This document shows positions 10,661 through 20,931 of a stretch of 64,000 nt of DNA, one piece after another (position 1 is the first letter of the stretch; the number at the start of each line of letters is the position of its first letter). Below the pieces are notes generated by a model, which saw nothing but the letters and a program-made list of their open reading frames with translations, was not told the origin of the DNA and ran no database searches. Source of the DNA: a virus; IMG/VR virus record IMGVR_UViG_3300030012_001663, positions 1-64,000 of that record. One strand, written 5' to 3'. The position numbers and the translations under genes are program-made.

Positions 10661-11341
10661 ATGTTTAATACTAAAGATATGTCTGCCGGTAGTGGTAGAA
10701 CAAAACCAGTAATGGGAGCAGGTAATAATGTTATTAAAATCAATAACATTACATTTGATCAAACACCATATGATGTTGATGCCTATAATATTACTTTACA
10801 TGTAGAGGGTAAGCCAGAAGAAGGAGAATTCCAAGGTTTCTTAAAAGATGTAAATAACCCTAACGGTGAGCGTTACGCTGGCCAGGTAGGTAGAATTAGG
10901 TTTAGCCCTTATCCTTACAAAGATACTACGTTACCAAGTGGTGTAGAAATCAGTAGAGATAATGAAATACTAAAAGGTATGATCTTCCTATCTGAAGTTC
11001 TTAATAAAAGAGAGGAGCTTGATAAGATAGAAGCAAATACTATTGAAGAGTTCATGAATGAGTGTAACAACTTATTCTCAAATAGTGAATACTTTAATGC
11101 ATGTATTGGTGGTAGAGAATGGGAGAACAAGGATGGCTATGTAAACCTTGACTTGTATTTACCACGTATCTCTAAAGATGGTGTTCCATTAGAAGCACTT
11201 GAAAAAGAGAACTCTAGACTTCTTACATTTAATAACTCAGAACATGTTAGAAAATTACAGAAGAAAGAGAATAACAATAATGAAGGAAATAAATCATTTG
11301 AGCCAGCTACATCTAGTGTAGGTGATGATTTTGATTTATAA
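10661..11341 (+). CDS. Putative ssDNA-binding protein partner of Sak4
   Basis: Follows the Sak4-like gene; beta-rich; acidic tail GDDFDL. Confidence 0.55.
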   Translation: MFNTKDMSAGSGRTKPVMGAGNNVIKINNITFDQTPYDVDAYNITLHVEGKPEEGEFQGFLKDVNNPNGERYAGQVGRIRFSPYPYKDTTLPSGVEISRDNEILKGMIFLSEVLNKREELDKIEANTIEEFMNECNNLFSNSEYFNACIGGREWENKDGYVNLDLYLPRISKDGVPLEALEKENSRLLTFNNSEHVRKLQKKENNNNEGNKSFEPATSSVGDDFDL

Positions 11342-12443: not shown

Positions 12444-12896
12444 ATGAAATGGTTTATACCAGGCAATGTACCCTCAAGTAAAAATGGTAGAAGATGGACC
12501 GGTAAGTATTTCATAGCAAGTAAATCTGTTATGAACTATAGGAAAGCAACAAAATCCTACTATGAGAAATTTGCTCCTCTGTTTAGAGAAGAGCTTAAGA
12601 ATCATAAACTACCCGTCTCAATAGCATTTACATTTGTTAGAGGTACTAAACACAAGTTTGATTATATAAACCCTGCACAAACTGTACAGGATGATATGGT
12701 TAAACATGGTTGGATTGAAGATGACAATGCTGAATTTATACTACCAGTATTTATACAGTATAGTTATGATAAAATCAATCCGGGAGTATTTATTGAAATA
12801 ATTGATAACACTGTAAATAATGATGAACACAAATCTAGATCTAAAAGATCAAATCCTCCTAACAAGACTAAAAGGAAAAGGAATATCACAACTTAA
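12444..12896 (+). CDS. RusA-like Holliday junction resolvase
   Basis: GNVPSSKN; FDYINPAQTVQDDMVKHGWIEDDN (D.DN..K...D..........DD pattern). Confidence 0.75.
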   Translation: MKWFIPGNVPSSKNGRRWTGKYFIASKSVMNYRKATKSYYEKFAPLFREELKNHKLPVSIAFTFVRGTKHKFDYINPAQTVQDDMVKHGWIEDDNAEFILPVFIQYSYDKINPGVFIEIIDNTVNNDEHKSRSKRSNPPNKTKRKRNITT

Positions 12897-13212
12897 TATA
12901 TCATTCTCAGGGTCAGGAGACTCAGGAGATGTGGATGAGGTTGGTTATAAAACTAATGATGGGGTTGACTCATGGCAATTAGATATAAATAACAGACTAA
13001 TTGAATCAACTGAAGAAGAAAAAATAAAAGACATGGCTTATACATGGCTTTCTAATAATCTTCTTTATGATTGGGTAAATAATGAAGGTGGCTCAGGTCA
13101 ATTAAATATTAACTTGAGTGATTTTTCATGGGACTTAGACTATTATGAACGTACTGTCCAAGAACATAACTTTGATGGTCAAAATATTTTTAGAAATGAG
13201 TCGTGTGGTTAA
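12820..13212 (+). CDS. DUF6878-like protein
   Basis: ISFSGSGDSGD and DWVNNEGGSG motifs. Confidence 0.65.
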   Translation: MMNTNLDLKDQILLTRLKGKGISQLNISFSGSGDSGDVDEVGYKTNDGVDSWQLDINNRLIESTEEEKIKDMAYTWLSNNLLYDWVNNEGGSGQLNINLSDFSWDLDYYERTVQEHNFDGQNIFRNESCG

Positions 13213-13366
13213 GAACTTCTGTTGTATTTGTGAGAAACCTTTTGAAGGATTTGGACATAGTCCCAGACCATTAGCAGAGGATGGTTGTTGTTGTGATACC
13301 TGTAATTATACTAAGGTAATCCCAGCAAGATTATATATGGGGCAGTATCCAGGCACATATGATTAA
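13196..13366 (+). CDS. Small Cys-rich zinc-finger protein
   Basis: CCIC..GHSPRP..CCCDTCN..VIPAR; ATG 13196. Confidence 0.65.
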   Translation: MSRVVKNFCCICEKPFEGFGHSPRPLAEDGCCCDTCNYTKVIPARLYMGQYPGTYD

Positions 13367-13713
13367 TGGCACATCCATTAATACACAGTAAAAGTTCTGT
13401 AAGAAAGTGGGGAGGCAAGGTTGAAGACTACCAGCATATACATGACTGGTTTGATGAGACTAAATCATGGTTAGGTCATTCTAACCATAGAGCCTTTCGT
13501 CATCATTCTGAAGGAATTTTTGAATGTGAAAAAATATTTGGTAAAAGTTTTACTAACTCTGATGGTAAAACAGTATATACCAGATATGTAGGTGAACAGC
13601 ACGTAAAAGAAGATTGTAATAATTATATACCATCTGCTAAAGAGTGGTTGTTTAATATTGGATCAGGTAATAGACCTGATTGGATGATGAAAACAATGAA
13701 AATTAATGATTAA
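13366..13713 (+). CDS. DUF6915-like protein
   Basis: MAHP..H..SS..KWGG..EDY..IHDWFD..K; HRAFRHHSEGI; EQHVKED. Confidence 0.75.
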   Translation: MAHPLIHSKSSVRKWGGKVEDYQHIHDWFDETKSWLGHSNHRAFRHHSEGIFECEKIFGKSFTNSDGKTVYTRYVGEQHVKEDCNNYIPSAKEWLFNIGSGNRPDWMMKTMKIND

Positions 13714-14062
13714 AATGAATTTAGAAGAATTTAAAATAACAAGAAAGCAATTACATGCAACTGAAGAAGACTTTGAATTAGCATTGGAAAATATAGATAA
13801 CTTAAAACTGTCACAGAATATTAAAGTATTATTCTGTAAAGATCTTTCATTTAATAGAAGACATAGATTTAGAGAAAGATTTGAAATCACACTAGAAGAG
13901 CGTGAGATGAGTACTGGGGAAATGTTTGAAACAATAAAAAGTACTGGAACAGATGATGAGAAGTCTATGTTTACTTATTTAGTAGAAAATGATATCAAAA
14001 AAGGTTTCTTTAACGGTGACTTTAATTTTATGAATGAACTTAAATTAGATTTAAAATGGTAG
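13706..14062 (+). CDS. Hypothetical protein (shares a helical motif with ORFs 16490 and 17529)
   Basis: ATEEDFELALENIDNL motif; overlaps both neighbours. Confidence 0.65.
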   Translation: MIKMNLEEFKITRKQLHATEEDFELALENIDNLKLSQNIKVLFCKDLSFNRRHRFRERFEITLEEREMSTGEMFETIKSTGTDDEKSMFTYLVENDIKKGFFNGDFNFMNELKLDLKW

Positions 14063-15213
14063 CAGAACAGTTATCTAAAGCAACTAAAACACTAATACTA
14101 GAGGAGCCCTTTTATGGGCTCTTTTTAGTTGGATTAAATAAAGTATATATAAAGACTATACCTACAGCTGGTGTTAGCAAACACGGTATAGGTGTACAAC
14201 TTGCAATAAACCCAGACTTTTTCTTAGAATTATCTAATGAACATAGAATAGGCTTAGTGAAACATGAGTTACTTCATATTTCATTTGGACATCTTATTAT
14301 GAGAGATATGTATCAAGATAAAAAGTTATTTAATATTGCAGCAGACATAGAAATAAACCAGTATATATCTCATAGCTACTTACCTGAAGGAGGTTTAACA
14401 TTACAAAGCTTCCCTGAACTAGATTTACCAGAGAAGGCAGGTACTAAAAAGTATTATGATTTATTGCAACAAGCTAAAGAAGATGGTACATCACCAACTC
14501 TTGACTCTTTGATGTCACAAATGGATGGTAATACACCCTATTGTCATACAACTTGGGATGAGCTAGATGAATTATCTGATGCTGATAAAAAGCTTATACA
14601 AAAGCAAATAGAGCATCAGCTAAAAGAAACTGCTGAGCAAACAGAGAAGAGGAGAGGTAATATACCGGGTGAACTAGCTGATTTAATACACAGGCTAAGG
14701 CATGTTGAACCACCTAAATTTGATTGGAAAGGATATCTAAGAAGATTTGTAGGTAATTCTAGTATATCATACACTAAGAAGCTAAGGAGAAAATATAACA
14801 AAAGATATATATCTAATCCTGGCCTAAAGATTAAGTTTAAGAATCATATACTAGTTGGTGTTGACACAAGTGGATCTGTATCTAATAAGGAACTTGTTGA
14901 GTTTATGAGTGAACTTACTCATATGCATAAAACCGGTCACAAGATTACAGTAGCACAATGTGATACGCAGATTAATTCTATAAAAGAATTTAATCCAAAG
15001 AAAGACTGGGAAATTAAAGGTAGAGGAGGTACTGACTTCCAACCTGTAATTGATCATTATAATGAGAAGAAAGGGCGTTATACAGCCCTTATATATTTAA
15101 CAGATGGTGAAGCTTATAGTCCTGATAACTGTCCACAAAATACCTTATGGGTACACAGTTCTCAATGTAGCATAAATGAAGAATTACCAGGATTAAAAAT
15201 ACAATTAAATTAA
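14056..15213 (+). CDS. DUF2201-type metallopeptidase plus VWA domain protein
   Basis: HELLH zincin, NIAADIEIN, MIDAS DTSGS, GRGGTDF, LTDG. Confidence 0.88.
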   Translation: MVAEQLSKATKTLILEEPFYGLFLVGLNKVYIKTIPTAGVSKHGIGVQLAINPDFFLELSNEHRIGLVKHELLHISFGHLIMRDMYQDKKLFNIAADIEINQYISHSYLPEGGLTLQSFPELDLPEKAGTKKYYDLLQQAKEDGTSPTLDSLMSQMDGNTPYCHTTWDELDELSDADKKLIQKQIEHQLKETAEQTEKRRGNIPGELADLIHRLRHVEPPKFDWKGYLRRFVGNSSISYTKKLRRKYNKRYISNPGLKIKFKNHILVGVDTSGSVSNKELVEFMSELTHMHKTGHKITVAQCDTQINSIKEFNPKKDWEIKGRGGTDFQPVIDHYNEKKGRYTALIYLTDGEAYSPDNCPQNTLWVHSSQCSINEELPGLKIQLN

Positions 15214-15221
15214 AATTAAAA

Positions 15222-16490
15222 ATGGCACAAGTAAATTTAAATATTGAAGAACTAAAAGGTTTTGTAAACCACATTGTTAGTAATAATAGATTCTTACAAA
15301 AAGACCGTAAGAATCCAGTATCTATAGAAGTTGTAGGTGAGTCAGGTATTGGTAAGACTTCATCTATTATTGAAATGGCAAAAGAGCTTGACTTAGATTT
15401 TGTTAAGCTTAACCTTGCTCAGATAGAAGAGCTAGGTGATCTTGTAGGTTTTCCTGTAAGACAATTTCAAATGTATAAAGAGAAGCAAGTAACAGTATCT
15501 AATGATAACTTAGAAATGGTGACAGCAACACAAAGAGCAGCAGGTGCAAGCCTTGCTAATTTGAGTAGCACTGTAACTAAGAAAGTTGGCCAATGGGTTG
15601 ATGAACTTGCTGTACAGGAATATTTAAAGAATGGATTTAAAATGACCGGTAAGAATAGAATGTCTTATTGTGCACCAGAATGGATTTCTAATAAGAAGAA
15701 AGGTGGTATCCTGCTTCTTGATGATTGGAACCGTGCTGATGTACGTTTCATACAAGCTGTTATGGAACTTGTAGATAGACAGACTTATATCTCATGGTCA
15801 TTACCAGAAGACTGGCACATAATCCTAACATCAAACCCTGATAATGGTGACTATATGGTAAACTCTGTAGATGCAGCACAGAAGACCAGATATATCACTG
15901 CTAATCTAAAGTTTGATGTAAATGTATGGGCTAAGTGGGCAGAAGAAGCAGGAATAGATACACGTTGTATCAACTTCCTATTACTTCATCCAGAATTAGT
16001 TACACAAGAAACTAATGCAAGGTCTATTACAACATTCTTTAATGCAATATCTAGTTTTAATAACTTTGAAGAGAACCTATCACTAATTCAAATGATTGGT
16101 GAAGGTAGTGTAGGAGATGCATTTGCTTCTATGTTTACAACATTTATCAATAATAAACTTGATAAACTTGTAACACCTATGGATCTATTGACTCATGATA
16201 ATGAGCAATATATTCTTGGAGAACTAACTGGATGTATTGGTAAAGATGATTCATATCGTGCAGATATTGCATCTACTCTTGCAACAAGATTAGCTAACTA
16301 TGCTGTTGTATACTCAAAAGAGAATACAATTACGCAGAAGATTACTGATAGACTAGAAACATTATGTACTAAAGACTACTTTACAAATGATCTTAAGTAC
16401 TTAGTGGTAAGAACAATCTTTAATGGCAACAAAGCTAAGTTTAATAAACTTATGATGAAGCCTGAAATAATAAAAATGACAATGAAGTAA
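15222..16490 (+). CDS. MoxR-like AAA+ ATPase
   Basis: GESGIGKT, GDLVGFP, PEW, LLLDDWNRA, TSNP; adjacent to the VWA gene. Confidence 0.85.
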   Translation: MAQVNLNIEELKGFVNHIVSNNRFLQKDRKNPVSIEVVGESGIGKTSSIIEMAKELDLDFVKLNLAQIEELGDLVGFPVRQFQMYKEKQVTVSNDNLEMVTATQRAAGASLANLSSTVTKKVGQWVDELAVQEYLKNGFKMTGKNRMSYCAPEWISNKKKGGILLLDDWNRADVRFIQAVMELVDRQTYISWSLPEDWHIILTSNPDNGDYMVNSVDAAQKTRYITANLKFDVNVWAKWAEEAGIDTRCINFLLLHPELVTQETNARSITTFFNAISSFNNFEENLSLIQMIGEGSVGDAFASMFTTFINNKLDKLVTPMDLLTHDNEQYILGELTGCIGKDDSYRADIASTLATRLANYAVVYSKENTITQKITDRLETLCTKDYFTNDLKYLVVRTIFNGNKAKFNKLMMKPEIIKMTMK

Positions 16491-17536
16491 TGGCAAATAA
16501 AAGCGTTTTTCAAGAATTTGATGTTAACGCTCTAACACAATACAGCCTTGGTAGTAACTCAGAGAGATTTGGGTTACTATCAAGGGGTGTTGTAAATGAG
16601 GTTATATTAACAGAAGATAAAACATCTGTAGATGCTATGCATGATATAGTTAAAATACCTACTATAACATCACTAAAGAAAGGTAGTTATAAAAAAGCAT
16701 TTGTAATACCTGGCTGTGAAGTATCAGCAGATAGACTTAAACAATCACTGAAGGATCATGGTATAGCTATGACAAATGATTATGAGATTGCAGACTTAAT
16801 TATAACTCATGATAATCTACATCAAGGATTTAATAATGAGGAGAATATCAAAACAAATGTTTTGTTTGGTACAATATGGAACTATGAAGCATATGATATG
16901 TCTAAATCTAATTCTTTATTAGGTGTAAGTAATCCTAACAACCTTCGTGTAATTTATACTCCATCTGTAGCTGATAAAGTAAATAGATATAATCTTGATG
17001 AGGAGGTAAGTTTATATGATCTAGCATACCTAACAGGCTTGGGTTGTAACTTAGCATACAGAATAGGTACTGAGGGACTAGCAGTTGTAGATACTGATAC
17101 AGTTTTACATGAGTCAGCCTCATTAACCGTATTAGATGAAGAACTATTGCGTACTCTAGTAGGATGTTTAGAATCCTATAATGATGAAAACCTAGCAATG
17201 GCTTCTAAAATGATCCCAACATTGGATTATACAAAGAACTTGCATCTTATATGGAGATTAGCGGATACTCTCTACTCTTATAGTCATAAATTTAGTAGAG
17301 ATAAAGATGTGAACTATTGGATGCAAAAAGCTAATATTGATCACTATAGAAGTTTATCAGCAGAAGCTATGATTCAAGAACTTCACAATGAAGGTAAGCT
17401 TGACACAATAACATTTAGATATTTAGAGCCTATATGCAGGAAAGAAATATATATCTCTAATAGAGAACTATATGTATTTCAATGCCAAGTTAGGCCTGAA
17501 TACCGTAAATATTTAAAACACAGTACAAATGAATAA
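16490..17536 (+). CDS. Hypothetical protein with BRCT-like segment
   Basis: KKAFVIPGCEVSADRLKQSLKDHGIAMTNDYEIADLII; paralogous to ORF 17529. Confidence 0.6.
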   Translation: MANKSVFQEFDVNALTQYSLGSNSERFGLLSRGVVNEVILTEDKTSVDAMHDIVKIPTITSLKKGSYKKAFVIPGCEVSADRLKQSLKDHGIAMTNDYEIADLIITHDNLHQGFNNEENIKTNVLFGTIWNYEAYDMSKSNSLLGVSNPNNLRVIYTPSVADKVNRYNLDEEVSLYDLAYLTGLGCNLAYRIGTEGLAVVDTDTVLHESASLTVLDEELLRTLVGCLESYNDENLAMASKMIPTLDYTKNLHLIWRLADTLYSYSHKFSRDKDVNYWMQKANIDHYRSLSAEAMIQELHNEGKLDTITFRYLEPICRKEIYISNRELYVFQCQVRPEYRKYLKHSTNE

Positions 17537-18761
17537 TGTATATAAAATTAAAATAAAAGTAAATGACAATGGTCTATATAGTGATGTAGACCTAAATAAA
17601 CTAGGATTATTTCTTGGTGATATTACAAACTACTCATGGTCAAGGCCAATGAGTAAGTTTGATAATGTGAAACTTAATCTTATTGATGCACCAGAATTAG
17701 TGCAGATAAAAGATAAAAAACTATATAGATATCCTAAGTTATGTTTACCAAGAATGAAGGTAGATCTTCTTAAAGAGAAGTATAATGTAAAAGTGGTCAG
17801 AGATAAAGCAAAATCAGACTACAGCATTATATCTATGAAGTATTTAGATAGCATTACTGCTGTTCCGTGGGATACTTATTATGATATCTCTATATTAAAA
17901 GATATGATAGATTATTTTACATCAGTACAACAACAGTATCCTGATACAATATCGGTAGACTTTGCAGATAAACTGAATATGCTTTATAGAACTCTACATA
18001 CAACAGATAGAATACATATAGATTTGCCATATTATTATGGTAATAACAATTCAAATAACTTTGATCTTGTTAGAGATGCAGCTAATAAAATTCTAAGAGA
18101 TGTTAGTGATAGCAGAAATCTTGTTTATGTAAAAGAAGAGAATGAGCAAGACTTTAATTCACTTATGTCAGGATCTCAGTTAGTTCTTGATAAAGTAATC
18201 AATAGTATATGTTCTGAAGATATGCATGTTATGACTGCAGATGAAGTAGATCAAATGCAAACTATGATACAAAGTGATGATAGAGCTAACAGAGCTCTTG
18301 CATTAGAAATGATGTCTAATTGTAACTTAGAAGCATGCCTTGATAAAGTTGCTTCAACATTCTATTTTAATTATAATTACTTAAAGGATGCTAACAACTG
18401 GAATCATGTAAATGTAAAAGCACTGAGAGAAAGACTTGGTGGTTTTACAAATGACCATGGTAATGATAGTCAGATATATATGTATCAAAATCTAATTAGA
18501 CTGCTAGTAGCAGAAACTGCATTTACAGAGTGGGCGTGGTTTGAAATTAGGAAACGTATATATAATAATGTATATTTAGGAAATAATTTAACCGGATCAG
18601 CAAAACGTGGTGGTGAGACTGTAGATAACCTTTTCACTATTAATATTGAGGATATAAAACTAAATGAAGAATTACAGAAGGCACTTATTGTAGAGCCAGA
18701 CGGTAATGAAATCATAGAAGAGTTAACAAGCCTTGATGGATTTGATGATCTACCATTTTAA
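17529..18761 (+). CDS. Hypothetical protein with BRCT-like segment and C-terminal DDLPF
   Basis: KKLYRYPKLCLPRMKVDLLKEKYNVKVVRDKAKSDYSII; ends GFDDLPF. Confidence 0.6.
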   Translation: MNNVYKIKIKVNDNGLYSDVDLNKLGLFLGDITNYSWSRPMSKFDNVKLNLIDAPELVQIKDKKLYRYPKLCLPRMKVDLLKEKYNVKVVRDKAKSDYSIISMKYLDSITAVPWDTYYDISILKDMIDYFTSVQQQYPDTISVDFADKLNMLYRTLHTTDRIHIDLPYYYGNNNSNNFDLVRDAANKILRDVSDSRNLVYVKEENEQDFNSLMSGSQLVLDKVINSICSEDMHVMTADEVDQMQTMIQSDDRANRALALEMMSNCNLEACLDKVASTFYFNYNYLKDANNWNHVNVKALRERLGGFTNDHGNDSQIYMYQNLIRLLVAETAFTEWAWFEIRKRIYNNVYLGNNLTGSAKRGGETVDNLFTINIEDIKLNEELQKALIVEPDGNEIIEELTSLDGFDDLPF

Positions 18762-18766
18762 TAATT

Positions 18767-18901
18767 ATGACAGAAGAAGATATGAAATACAGACAAGGCA
18801 GATCTAGAAAACAAGTAGAATCAACGTATAAGTTGATGGACTTCTTACTAGTATTTGCCTTGGCATCTTCTATCATTGGTCTTATTATATCTATAATATG
18901 A
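18767..18901 (+). CDS. 44-aa single-TM protein (not in ORF track)
   Basis: MTEEDMKYRQGRSRKQVESTYKLMDFLLVFALASSIIGLIISII; ATGA overlap with 18898. Confidence 0.65.
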   Translation: MTEEDMKYRQGRSRKQVESTYKLMDFLLVFALASSIIGLIISII

Positions 18902-20462: not shown

Positions 20463-20876
20463 ATGGGTATAGGAAAAAATATGATGTTAGTAACCTCTTC
20501 TTTTAGAGGAGCTAAGTCTTTTAACTTAATGCCAGTGAGCAATGACTCACCATATGTAGAAGCTATGTTTGACCCATCGTCAGGCATTTTAGCAGTAATT
20601 GGTAAAACCTCTAAACAATCATTTCATATGGTCCCTAGACTAGATGATAATGGTCAACCACAGAGACTTAAAGTTCCAAATAAAACTACAGGTAAAACTG
20701 TAAAGGAACAGAGAATAAGCCAAGAAACGTTTTCTGAGTTTTATATAACTGAGAAAGAGGAGATTGAGAACTTCATTAATATATTTGCAATAAATGCTGA
20801 ATCATTTGACTATGGGCAGTTCATGAATGTAGATGTTAAGGAAACTCAAACTTCCAACATTATACTTAATGCATAG
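20463..20876 (+). CDS. Hypothetical protein
   Basis: 137-aa ORF bracketed by its own promoter and terminator. Confidence 0.75.
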   Translation: MGIGKNMMLVTSSFRGAKSFNLMPVSNDSPYVEAMFDPSSGILAVIGKTSKQSFHMVPRLDDNGQPQRLKVPNKTTGKTVKEQRISQETFSEFYITEKEEIENFINIFAINAESFDYGQFMNVDVKETQTSNIILNA

Positions 20877-20900
20877 TTAAGTATGAATTTAAGTTGATTG

Positions 20901-20931
20901 AAAGGGGATGTGCAAGCATCCCTTTTTTTTT
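20901..20931 (+). terminator. Rho-independent terminator
   Basis: AAAGGGGATG-TGCAAG-CATCCCTTTTTTTTT. Confidence 0.8.

Follow-up and report, generated by a model that had tools for sequence, protein, structure and literature searches.

A conserved five-gene block in a marine phage

The first 64 kb of IMG/VR virus record IMGVR_UViG_3300030012_001663, a 95.4-kb record with an estimated completeness of 83%, were analyzed; this whole stretch of 64,000 nucleotides (nt) is referred to below as the window. The source phage is uncultured and marine, and amid its DNA-replication genes sits a cassette built around two putative enzymes: a zincin metallopeptidase fused to a von Willebrand factor A (vWA) domain, and an AAA+ ATPase. 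The conserved unit consists of five genes, encoding a small helical protein, the zincin-vWA protein, the AAA+ protein and two larger paralogues with predicted BRCT-like and ARM/HEAT-like parts, and it forms part of a longer run of co-directional genes for replication and recombination (Table 1). The pair itself is known. What is new here is the probable ARM/HEAT-like character of a module shared by the three partner proteins, the identification of midasin as the closest solved relative of the AAA+ protein, and a C-terminal end on one partner (GFDDLPF) that resembles the tip of SSB, the bacterial protein that binds single-stranded DNA.

A total of 531 related viral stretches encode a relative of the AAA+ protein, the best 80 of which are 83–98% identical. 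Gene order was counted in the 65 loci with enough flanking DNA, and presence or absence in 82 related loci. The five genes occur in the same order in all 65 loci, namely a small protein of ~100 aa, the vWA protein, the AAA+ protein and relatives of the products of open reading frames (ORFs) 16490 and 17529, with median gaps of -8, +9, +1 and +1 nt; the small-protein gene thus lies directly upstream of the vWA gene throughout, with a median overlap of 8 nt. In the window, neighbouring ORFs meet at 13366/13366, 13713/13706, 14062/14056, 15213/15222, 16490/16490 and 17536/17529. An earlier, sequence-only reading of this DNA had described a tightly packed eight-gene operon. The overlaps and abutments are as it described them, but the eight genes are not one unit, since three of them are variable inserts and the array runs past position 18761.

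Synteny in relatives, which the same reading had set as a test of its proposal, extends beyond the 65 loci. Two contigs from metagenome-assembled genomes (MAGs) in GTDB, whose AAA+ proteins are 48–49% identical to the one in the window, retain the block order despite insertions of GIY-YIG and HNH homing endonuclease genes. In this distant lineage, the GIY-YIG gene lies between the vWA and AAA+ genes (L094:5223-5990) and the HNH gene follows the AAA+ gene (L095:7238-7780); the vWA gene of L094 also looks split (81 + 344 aa). An apparent AAA+-partner fusion of 553 aa in L094 was rejected, as it consists of two genes joined across a masked run of N. Behind the GTDB matches are contigs of phage origin that had been assigned to unrelated MAGs (Pseudomonadales, Campylobacteraceae, Rickettsiales, Micavibrio and Bathyarchaeia), and no host could be assigned from them; the Bacteroidota/Flavobacterium host presupposed by the checks that the sequence-only reading proposed could not be confirmed.

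Within the block, the two engine genes are the slowest-evolving of the region and the partner genes the fastest, with median pairwise identities of 88% for the AAA+ protein, 79% for the vWA protein, and 53%, 42% and 34% for the three partners. Divergence of partners far faster than that of the engine is the pattern expected of adaptor or host-interface proteins.

Table 1. Cassette genes, terminal motif and accessory inserts, with positions in the window
Feature	Position	Strand	Basis
Small partner, 118 aa, stand-alone shared helical (putatively ARM/HEAT-like) module	13706..14062	+	Upstream-of-vWA family, hhalign E 3e-42
Putative zincin metallopeptidase fused to vWA, 385 aa, N4 gp25 type	14056..15213	+	DUF2201_N E 5e-21 and DUF2201 E 5e-17; phrog_1314 E 3e-67
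AAA+ ATPase, 422 aa, MoxR/midasin clade, N4 gp24 type	15222..16490	+	phrog_1297, E 3e-33
Partner paralogue 1, 348 aa	16490..17536	+	Predicted: N-terminal beta region; split BRCT-like part ~63-212; ARM/HEAT-like part ~211-289; C-terminal helical part
Partner paralogue 2, 410 aa	17529..18761	+	Predicted: beta hairpin; split BRCT-like part ~59-231; ARM/HEAT-like part ~232-313; C-terminal region; acidic tail
GFDDLPF-COOH, last seven codons of ORF 17529	18738..18758	+	Translation; like bacterial SSB C-terminal tip
DUF6878 protein, 130 aa	12820..13212	+	Pfam PF21798, E 7e-11
Cys-rich Zn-ribbon-like ORF, 73 aa as listed	13145..13366	+	CC-x-C ... CCC-x2-C in translation; homologues in 2/82 loci
DUF6915 protein, 115 aa, His-rich	13366..13713	+	PF21866, E 9e-41; phrog_8143

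The sequence-only reading had placed a MoxR-type AAA+ protein beside a zincin-vWA protein, and both assignments are borne out by family matches (DUF2201_N, DUF2201, phrog_1314 and phrog_1297) and by intact zincin and vWA motifs. The vWA protein clears the Pfam cut-offs with 75.9 bits versus 23.2 for DUF2201_N and 62.6 bits versus 26.4 for DUF2201. Its HExxHxxxGH site and the metal ion-dependent adhesion site (MIDAS) DTSGS...T...D are complete, with H70, E71, H74, H79, D270, S272, S274, T326 and D350 invariant across 10 diverse phage homologues, and conserved even in N4-like, jumbo-phage and cyanophage proteins. Among 77 close relatives, HExxH is found in 75 and DxSxS in all 77. In tblastn searches, matches to the vWA protein occurred in 445 cultured phage records at 23–33% identity, and in 410 of these records the match spans 80% or more of the query. 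Among the phages matched are ~350-kb coliphages, cyanophages S-TIM5/66, Alteromonas AD45-P1, Moorella MTATph1 and N4-like Schitoviridae. In the cultured phages, an AAA+ gene mostly adjoins the vWA gene, and genes for helicase, polymerase or nucleotide metabolism are frequent neighbours.

The AAA+ gene is the most conserved of the region and starts 8 nt past the vWA stop codon. Among solved structures, the AAA domains of midasin are the best match to its family profile (E 3.7e-17 over 183 positions), followed at lower significance by MoxR-like 2r44 (E 1.5e-4), McrB (E 2.5e-3) and CobS (E 0.03), while the protein falls below the gathering threshold of Pfam AAA_3 (PF07726; 17.7 bits versus 27). 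On these profile matches, it belongs to the MoxR/midasin/McrB/CobS clade, with the gene of its vWA partner adjacent. The motifs GESGIGKT, ILLLDDWNR and TxNP are present in all 82 relatives. The second of these, the Walker B segment (residues ~163-171), reads Asp-Asp in each of them, the usual catalytic Glu being replaced, so that it departs from the canonical hhhhDE. Cultured-phage homologues of the AAA+ protein are distant (tblastn identity ~22% to PBS1/AR9).

Judged by PHROG 1297 and 1314, the two enzymes are a pair of the type of gp24/gp25 in phage N4, which earlier work has documented in phages of the N4-like, rV5-like and jumbo groups; rV5 gp4 matches the AAA+ profile (E 2e-22) and rV5 gp12 the vWA profile (E 6e-27). 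In N4-like phages, gp24 (AAA) and gp25 (vWFA) are among 14 core genes and are middle genes of unknown function (PMC4193335; PMC2784036). The MoxR/metallopeptidase-vWA pair of jumbo phages was discussed by Iyer et al., who proposed a role in virion assembly (PMC7824862). The MoxR ATPase of the Vequintavirinae phage Bas54, bas54_0063, is dispensable on the laboratory host and needed against the predicted defence system DS-28 (PMC13716836).

Partner proteins: shared module, predicted folds and terminal motif

The three partners are not significantly similar in pairwise BLASTP (E 1.3–4.7 among ORFs 13706, 16490 and 17529), the best alignment of ORF 16490 with ORF 17529 falling on the helical motif that the sequence-only reading had recognized in all three. 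Pairwise BLASTP alone is insufficient to support that motif, which is nevertheless upheld when families are compared. Using hhalign on family profiles, the small-protein family matched the 17529 family with a probability of 87% (E 4e-6) and the 16490 family with E 1e-3, and the two large families matched each other with E 8.5e-4. All three alignments span the same helices, those of the motif, and reversed-profile controls gave only E 0.1–0.75. Likewise, a search of 3081 locus ORFs with the small-protein hidden Markov model (HMM) recovered proteins of both large families, 62 from that of ORF 16490 and 68 from that of ORF 17529 (best E 2–4e-4), the next unrelated ORF appearing at E 0.8. At the level of distant homology, these profile comparisons establish the three partners as paralogues.

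Members of the distant lineage link the families further. The 17529-like protein of L094 matches the 16490 HMM both in its N-terminal alpha/beta part (positions 60-127, E 8.5e-8) and in its helical part (214-309, E 9.5e-6). A bridging 167-aa protein at the 16490 position (L095:7781-8284) matches the HMMs of all three families, with E 7e-10 for 16490, E 8e-7 for 17529 and E 8e-3 for the small protein. This bridging protein consists of the helical half alone, lacking the BRCT-like half, so that the BRCT part of the paralogue is either dispensable or a later acquisition.

The small-protein family comprises 152 clusters at 50% identity, all of them small stand-alone proteins. One long match to its HMM in the library-wide search (P0194, 3022 aa) was discarded as a low-complexity tandem-repeat artefact; the remaining matches are small stand-alone relatives. 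For ORF 16490, 247 homologues were found, none of them named, and a tblastn search of 50,697 phage records with ORFs 16490 and 17529 gave no match. The partners match no Pfam or PADLOC model and form a family that has no name in Pfam, PHROGs, NCBIfam or PADLOC, for which no describing paper was found. No fourth paralogue is present elsewhere in the genome, and all three partners are retained together in 65/65 genomes, which speaks against the suggestion of the sequence-only reading that they are interchangeable.

AlphaFold2 models of the two large partners were built on 50- and 38-sequence alignments and reached a predicted local distance difference test (pLDDT) score of 87.5 in both cases, with predicted template modelling scores of 0.75 for ORF 17529 and 0.78 for ORF 16490. 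In VIA fold searches, the BRCT-like part of ORF 16490 superposed on XRCC1 (Z 7.2, 76 aa), 53BP1 (Z 6.9, 80 aa) and PARP4 (Z 6.8, 77 aa); its matches to BRCT domains have Z 6.1–7.2 over 72–80 residues, most of each 95–105-residue target domain. The corresponding part of ORF 17529 superposed on the PARP1 BRCT domain (Z 6.2, 76/106 aa), with >25 BRCT entries among the top 50. For both partners together, the superpositions cover 66–80 residues with Z 5–7.3 and root-mean-square deviations of 2.4–3.7. In each, the predicted BRCT-like domain is split after beta3 by an insert of 70–90 residues, which is beta-rich in ORF 16490 and helical in ORF 17529. The ~75 helical residues of the shared motif superpose on ARM/HEAT units over 66–77 residues, with moderate Z scores that are common for helical proteins (importin-9 and STAG at Z 6.6–7.2 for ORF 16490; AP2, beta-catenin and Hgh1 at Z 5.5–6.3 for ORF 17529), suggesting that the shared module may have an ARM/HEAT-like fold.

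The two large partners therefore have the same modelled architecture, in which a BRCT-like part interrupted by an insert precedes an ARM/HEAT-like part, and they match the same PDB entries. The BRCT-like assignment carries weight because two independently modelled paralogues agree and the beta1-alpha1-beta2-beta3 sequence is conserved; with it, the BRCT-like alpha/beta segment proposed from the sequence for the two large ORFs gains the support of models and fold searches. Pfam BRCT models matched neither protein at E <= 0.01. Conserved basic residues occur at R67 and K77 in the 17529 family and at K68 and R82 in the 16490 family.

A Foldseek search of PDB with both models gave nothing at E <= 1e-3, and ESM Atlas gave no usable match, its own model of ORF 16490 being poor. 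In BFVD, four full-length matches to the ORF 16490 model were found (E 5e-8 to 7e-6), suggesting that the modelled BRCT/ARM-like architecture, and perhaps the pairing too, occurs beyond the marine lineage. Two of the four (A0A8S5TL70 and A0A8S5TKB2; 378 and 363 aa) come from one virus, Podoviridae sp. ctz6O13, one (A0A8S5QMV2) from the crAss-like virus ctYsL76 and one from an uncultured Caudovirales phage; the remaining accession of the four is A0A6J5LXR8. The presence of two relatives of ORF 16490 in one human-virome virus suggests that the tandem-paralogue arrangement may predate the marine lineage.

The C-terminus of ORF 17529 (...EELTSLDGFDDLPF-COOH) is an acidic tail modelled at pLDDT 60–70, and no other ORF in the window ends in this way. 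In E. coli the SSB tip reads DDDIPF (MDFDDDIPF), in S. aureus and B. subtilis DDDLPF; the tip recruits PriA, RecO and other genome-maintenance proteins (PMC5531588; PMC5928155). Of 50 family members, ~29 have a DDLPF-COOH end, distant ones of only ~30% identity among them, and other members end differently. From this likeness, the tail of ORF 17529 is probably a mimic of the SSB C-terminal tip. A phmmer search of PDB sequences with the 30-residue tail gave no match, and no canonical OB-fold SSB (PF00436) was detected anywhere in the 95-kb genome. A 226-aa protein encoded at 10661-11341 (+), regarded as SSB-like in the sequence-only reading, has no Pfam or PHROG match and an acidic C-terminal end (...VGDDFDL).

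Genome setting and possible functions

The long plus-strand replication/recombination array includes genes for an SNF2-type helicase, a uracil-DNA glycosylase-like protein, a DnaA-C helix-turn-helix protein, a DnaB-type helicase, an AAA_24 ATPase and a DnaG-type primase. It continues through RusA, the cassette region, a PD-(D/E)XK exonuclease, two unknowns and a terminator to a DNA polymerase (phrog_1252, E 2e-130). The terminator-like hairpin, a strong one of intrinsic type with a 12-bp stem followed by a T-run, lies at 20900-20927 (+) between the gene at 20463-20876 and the polymerase gene, and probably marks the 3' end of the transcription unit that holds the cassette. A scan for sigma-70 promoters gave no excess over shuffled sequences. 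What looks like a gap of 136 nt after ORF 17529 is occupied by an unannotated membrane-type ORF of 44 aa (18767-18901, +) with one hydrophobic segment; its stop codon and the start codon of the exonuclease gene overlap (ATGA). At the equivalent position, an ORF of 51–55 aa occurs in several related loci. The phage carries its structural genes on the opposite strand, tens of kb from the cassette, and the genome also encodes ribonucleotide reductase (RNR) subunits and a radical-SAM protein resembling spore photoproduct lyase (SPL).

The three variable genes of the cassette region, for the DUF6878 protein, the Zn-ribbon-like ORF and the DUF6915 protein, are inserts between RusA and the small partner that occur in 17, 2 and 13 of 82 loci, respectively, and are accessory to the conserved unit and outside it. 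The Zn-ribbon-like ORF had no match in Pfam and PHROG searches, and its true start is probably later than listed. In the 13 marine loci that have it, the DUF6915 protein is 75–90% identical, unusually strong conservation for a 115-aa protein without a known function; part of its gene (13438-13613) has ~70% nucleotide identity over 176 nt to Bacillus phages of the Tsamsa group (E 6e-13).

In the interpretation preferred here, the block is a lineage-specific elaboration of the widespread phage gp24/gp25 pair, expressed within the replication/recombination array, and its partners are adaptors that bring an ATP-driven remodelling or cleaving engine to fork- or SSB-associated proteins. This is advanced tentatively, the explanation as a whole being rated at somewhat less than an even chance. 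In its favour are the fixed gene order, the module common to the three partners, the matching architecture of the two large ones, the likeness of the AAA+ protein to midasin, the invariant zincin and MIDAS residues, the slow evolution of the engine relative to the partners, and the SSB-like tail. It also has the support of context: the pair lies between primase/RusA on one side and the PD-(D/E)XK exonuclease and DNA polymerase on the other, and the N4-like pair is also found beside helicase and DNA polymerase genes. In midasin, the AAA+ motor works through a MIDAS/vWA domain that grips partner proteins. The docking and targeting steps are drawn by analogy with midasin and with the ternary model for MoxR-vWA systems, which in its general form comprises capture by the vWA protein, release by MoxR and a third component (PMC7159879).

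On these analogies, the AAA+ ring and its vWA co-chaperone would operate like midasin and the MoxR-vWA systems. The MIDAS site of the vWA domain would grip a client, ATP hydrolysis would drag that client into a new conformation or off its complex, and the fused zincin would then cleave it. The three partners may dock on the engine through the shared helical module, either as adaptors or as regulated clients. Its destinations, namely forks, DNA ends and the proteins that normally attach to the host SSB tail, would be set by the split BRCT-like domains together with the GFDDLPF terminus of the 410-aa partner. In phage DNA replication, such an engine might thus assemble, strip or cleave nucleoprotein complexes, and the pay-off could be replisome assembly, host takeover or the neutralization of DNA-linked defences. 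What the data show is homology, the make-up of the domains, complete catalytic motifs, the difference in evolutionary rates, and a strictly syntenic block whose genes are translationally coupled; the physical interactions, the direction of action and the targets are what we infer in this scheme. A more specific version is improbable in its full detail. In it, the gp24/gp25-type engine would be a split midasin-like segregase-protease for DNA-bound protein complexes; an SSB-tail mimic and BRCT+ARM adaptors would recruit it to the host SSB interactome, to forks and to DNA ends, and host replication, repair or defence proteins would be dismantled or clipped there.

Several results weigh against the adaptor interpretation. 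N4-like and other phages have the pair without detectable relatives of the partners, and the partner HMMs showed no similarity to neighbours of the pair in Alteromonas AD45-P1, Pseudomonas PS28 or Moorella MTATph1 (best E 0.07). The similarity across the three families is weak (E 1e-3 to 4e-6), and on inspection of the alignments no single acidic residue, as a possible ligand of the MIDAS site, was conserved throughout the three. The Z scores for the BRCT and ARM folds are moderate (5–7.3), in a range that the fold tool itself warns is common. The Asp-Asp Walker B segment in place of Asp-Glu suggests that the ATPase behaviour may be unusual, and the absence of the DDLPF tail from many family members shows that it is not essential to the core function. 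Finally, since collinearity extends over all of the replication array in these phages, synteny alone is no proof that the partners act with the engine.

Collinearity is the starting point of an unlikely alternative, according to which the pair and the three helical/BRCT proteins have separate functions and are neighbours only through a shared replication module; the BRCT+ARM proteins would then be replisome or recombination scaffolds in their own right, bridging, for example, SSB-binding proteins, the exonuclease and the polymerase. Gene order is fixed in all loci from the primase to the gene preceding the polymerase, genomes of N4-like phages, jumbo phages, Moorella phages and cyanophages contain the pair but no such partners, and BRCT and SSB-tail features by themselves would suit replication scaffolds. 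Mere adjacency fits less well with a pair that is bracketed on its upstream side by one paralogue and on its downstream side by two, with start and stop codons that overlap. Moreover, this bracket survives in a lineage in which the AAA+ protein is 48% identical, even with homing endonuclease genes inserted, and no further paralogue is found elsewhere in the genome.

The sequence-only reading had favoured a dedicated counter-defence device, in which the engine, guided by fast-evolving adaptors, would inactivate or cleave host immune proteins without a role in replication. The Bas54 result favours a defence-related role: bas54_0063 is needed to overcome DS-28 and otherwise dispensable (PMC13716836), and rV5 gp4 and gp12 are homologous to the pair; orthology of bas54_0063 to rV5 gp4 is, for its part, putative. 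The rapid divergence of the partners would fit such a device, as would the reported sensing of phage SSB or replication intermediates by several defence systems. Core-gene status and the replication setting, in contrast, speak for a part in the replication cycle itself. The pair is among the 14 core genes of N4-like phages (PMC4193335) and present in 65/65 loci here, whereas typical anti-defence genes are patchy; it lies in the middle of the replication genes rather than in an early accessory region, and it has no match to PADLOC or known anti-defence families. A dedicated device of this kind is unlikely, and the location in the replication module, together with the BRCT-like and SSB-tail features, points to complexes associated with DNA or forks rather than to generic counter-defence.

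A chaperone for virion assembly that also processes structural proteins, as proposed for group 2.2 jumbo phages, is very unlikely. That proposal was made by analogy with the MoxR-vWA proteins needed for tail development in the Acidianus two-tailed virus (PMC7824862), and in cyanophage S-TIM66 the pair adjoins genes for Hsp20 and a virion structural protein. Both here and in N4-like phages, however, the pair lies amid replication genes, N4 gp24 and gp25 are middle rather than late genes (PMC4193335), the partners bear BRCT-like and SSB-tail features instead of those of structural proteins, and the structural genes of this genome are distant and on the other strand. Least likely of all, with only a slight chance, is a chaperone for metal-cofactor insertion or enzyme activation with clients such as RNR or the SPL-like radical-SAM protein, both encoded by this phage: it is the classical MoxR-vWA role (NorQ/NorD, CbbQ/CbbO, CoxD/CoxE and CobS/CobT; PMC9976466, PMC13036017) and CobS is a weak profile match, but the fused, strictly conserved zincin site is foreign to the classical systems, neither RNR nor SPL genes adjoin the pair, and the partners have predicted protein- or DNA-interaction folds rather than enzyme folds.

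The cassette is of interest for the pair itself, which is among the few core genes of N4-like phages and common in rV5-like and jumbo phages. In an abundant marine lineage, represented by the related IMG/VR stretches, the pair is accompanied by three co-conserved partners, whose predicted folds and SSB-tail-like end suggest that the workplace of the engine is at DNA-associated protein complexes. An unnamed protein family is thereby added, with structural relatives in crAss-like and podovirus genomes. If the segregase-protease version were true, it would offer a first mechanistic handle on the pair and define a new class of phage host-takeover machine.

Comparison with known systems

The closest known systems are N4 gp24/gp25 and the homologous proteins of jumbo phages, Schitoviridae and Vequintavirinae (rV5 gp4/gp12), all assigned to COG0714 and COG3864. 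The same two families are adjacent in these phages, among replication or nucleotide-metabolism genes, and the HExxH and MIDAS sites are intact, as they are here. The marine lineage differs in gene order, the vWA gene preceding the AAA+ gene, and in the three bracketing paralogues, which have no detectable relatives beside the N4-like, Alteromonas and Moorella pairs.

For the partners, the nearest comparisons are with domains of genome maintenance. The predicted folds superpose on BRCT domains (XRCC1, PARP1, PARP4, TopBP1, MCPH1 and the NAD-ligase type); in contrast to these, the BRCT-like domains described here are split by an insert and have no Pfam BRCT match. The end of ORF 17529 has the terminal pattern of the bacterial SSB tip that recruits PriA, RecO and the chi subunit, but the protein has no OB fold and no PF00436 match, so that it is not an SSB and at most mimics one.

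The MoxR-vWA ternary conflict systems (VMAP/iSTAND) described by Kaur, Burroughs, Iyer and Aravind in 2020 (PMC7159879) likewise combine an AAA+ protein, a vWA protein and one or more rapidly diverging, mostly alpha-helical partners, which are proposed to be restructured by the pair. Those systems are bacterial and of defence type, have a VMAP-C domain and bear effector domains on their vWA proteins, whereas the system described here is phage-encoded, with a zincin at the N-terminus of the vWA protein and no C-terminal effector, and its partners are predicted to be BRCT-like and ARM/HEAT-like, with no match to Pfam or PADLOC models. Midasin/Rea1 is the closest solved AAA+ protein by profile and shares the logic of an AAA+ motor coupled to a MIDAS/vWA domain. 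It is, however, a single chain of 4,900 residues with six AAA modules, a tethered MIDAS domain and unrelated clients, whereas the marine phage encodes a single-module AAA+ protein of 422 aa and, separately, a vWA protein that carries a zincin.

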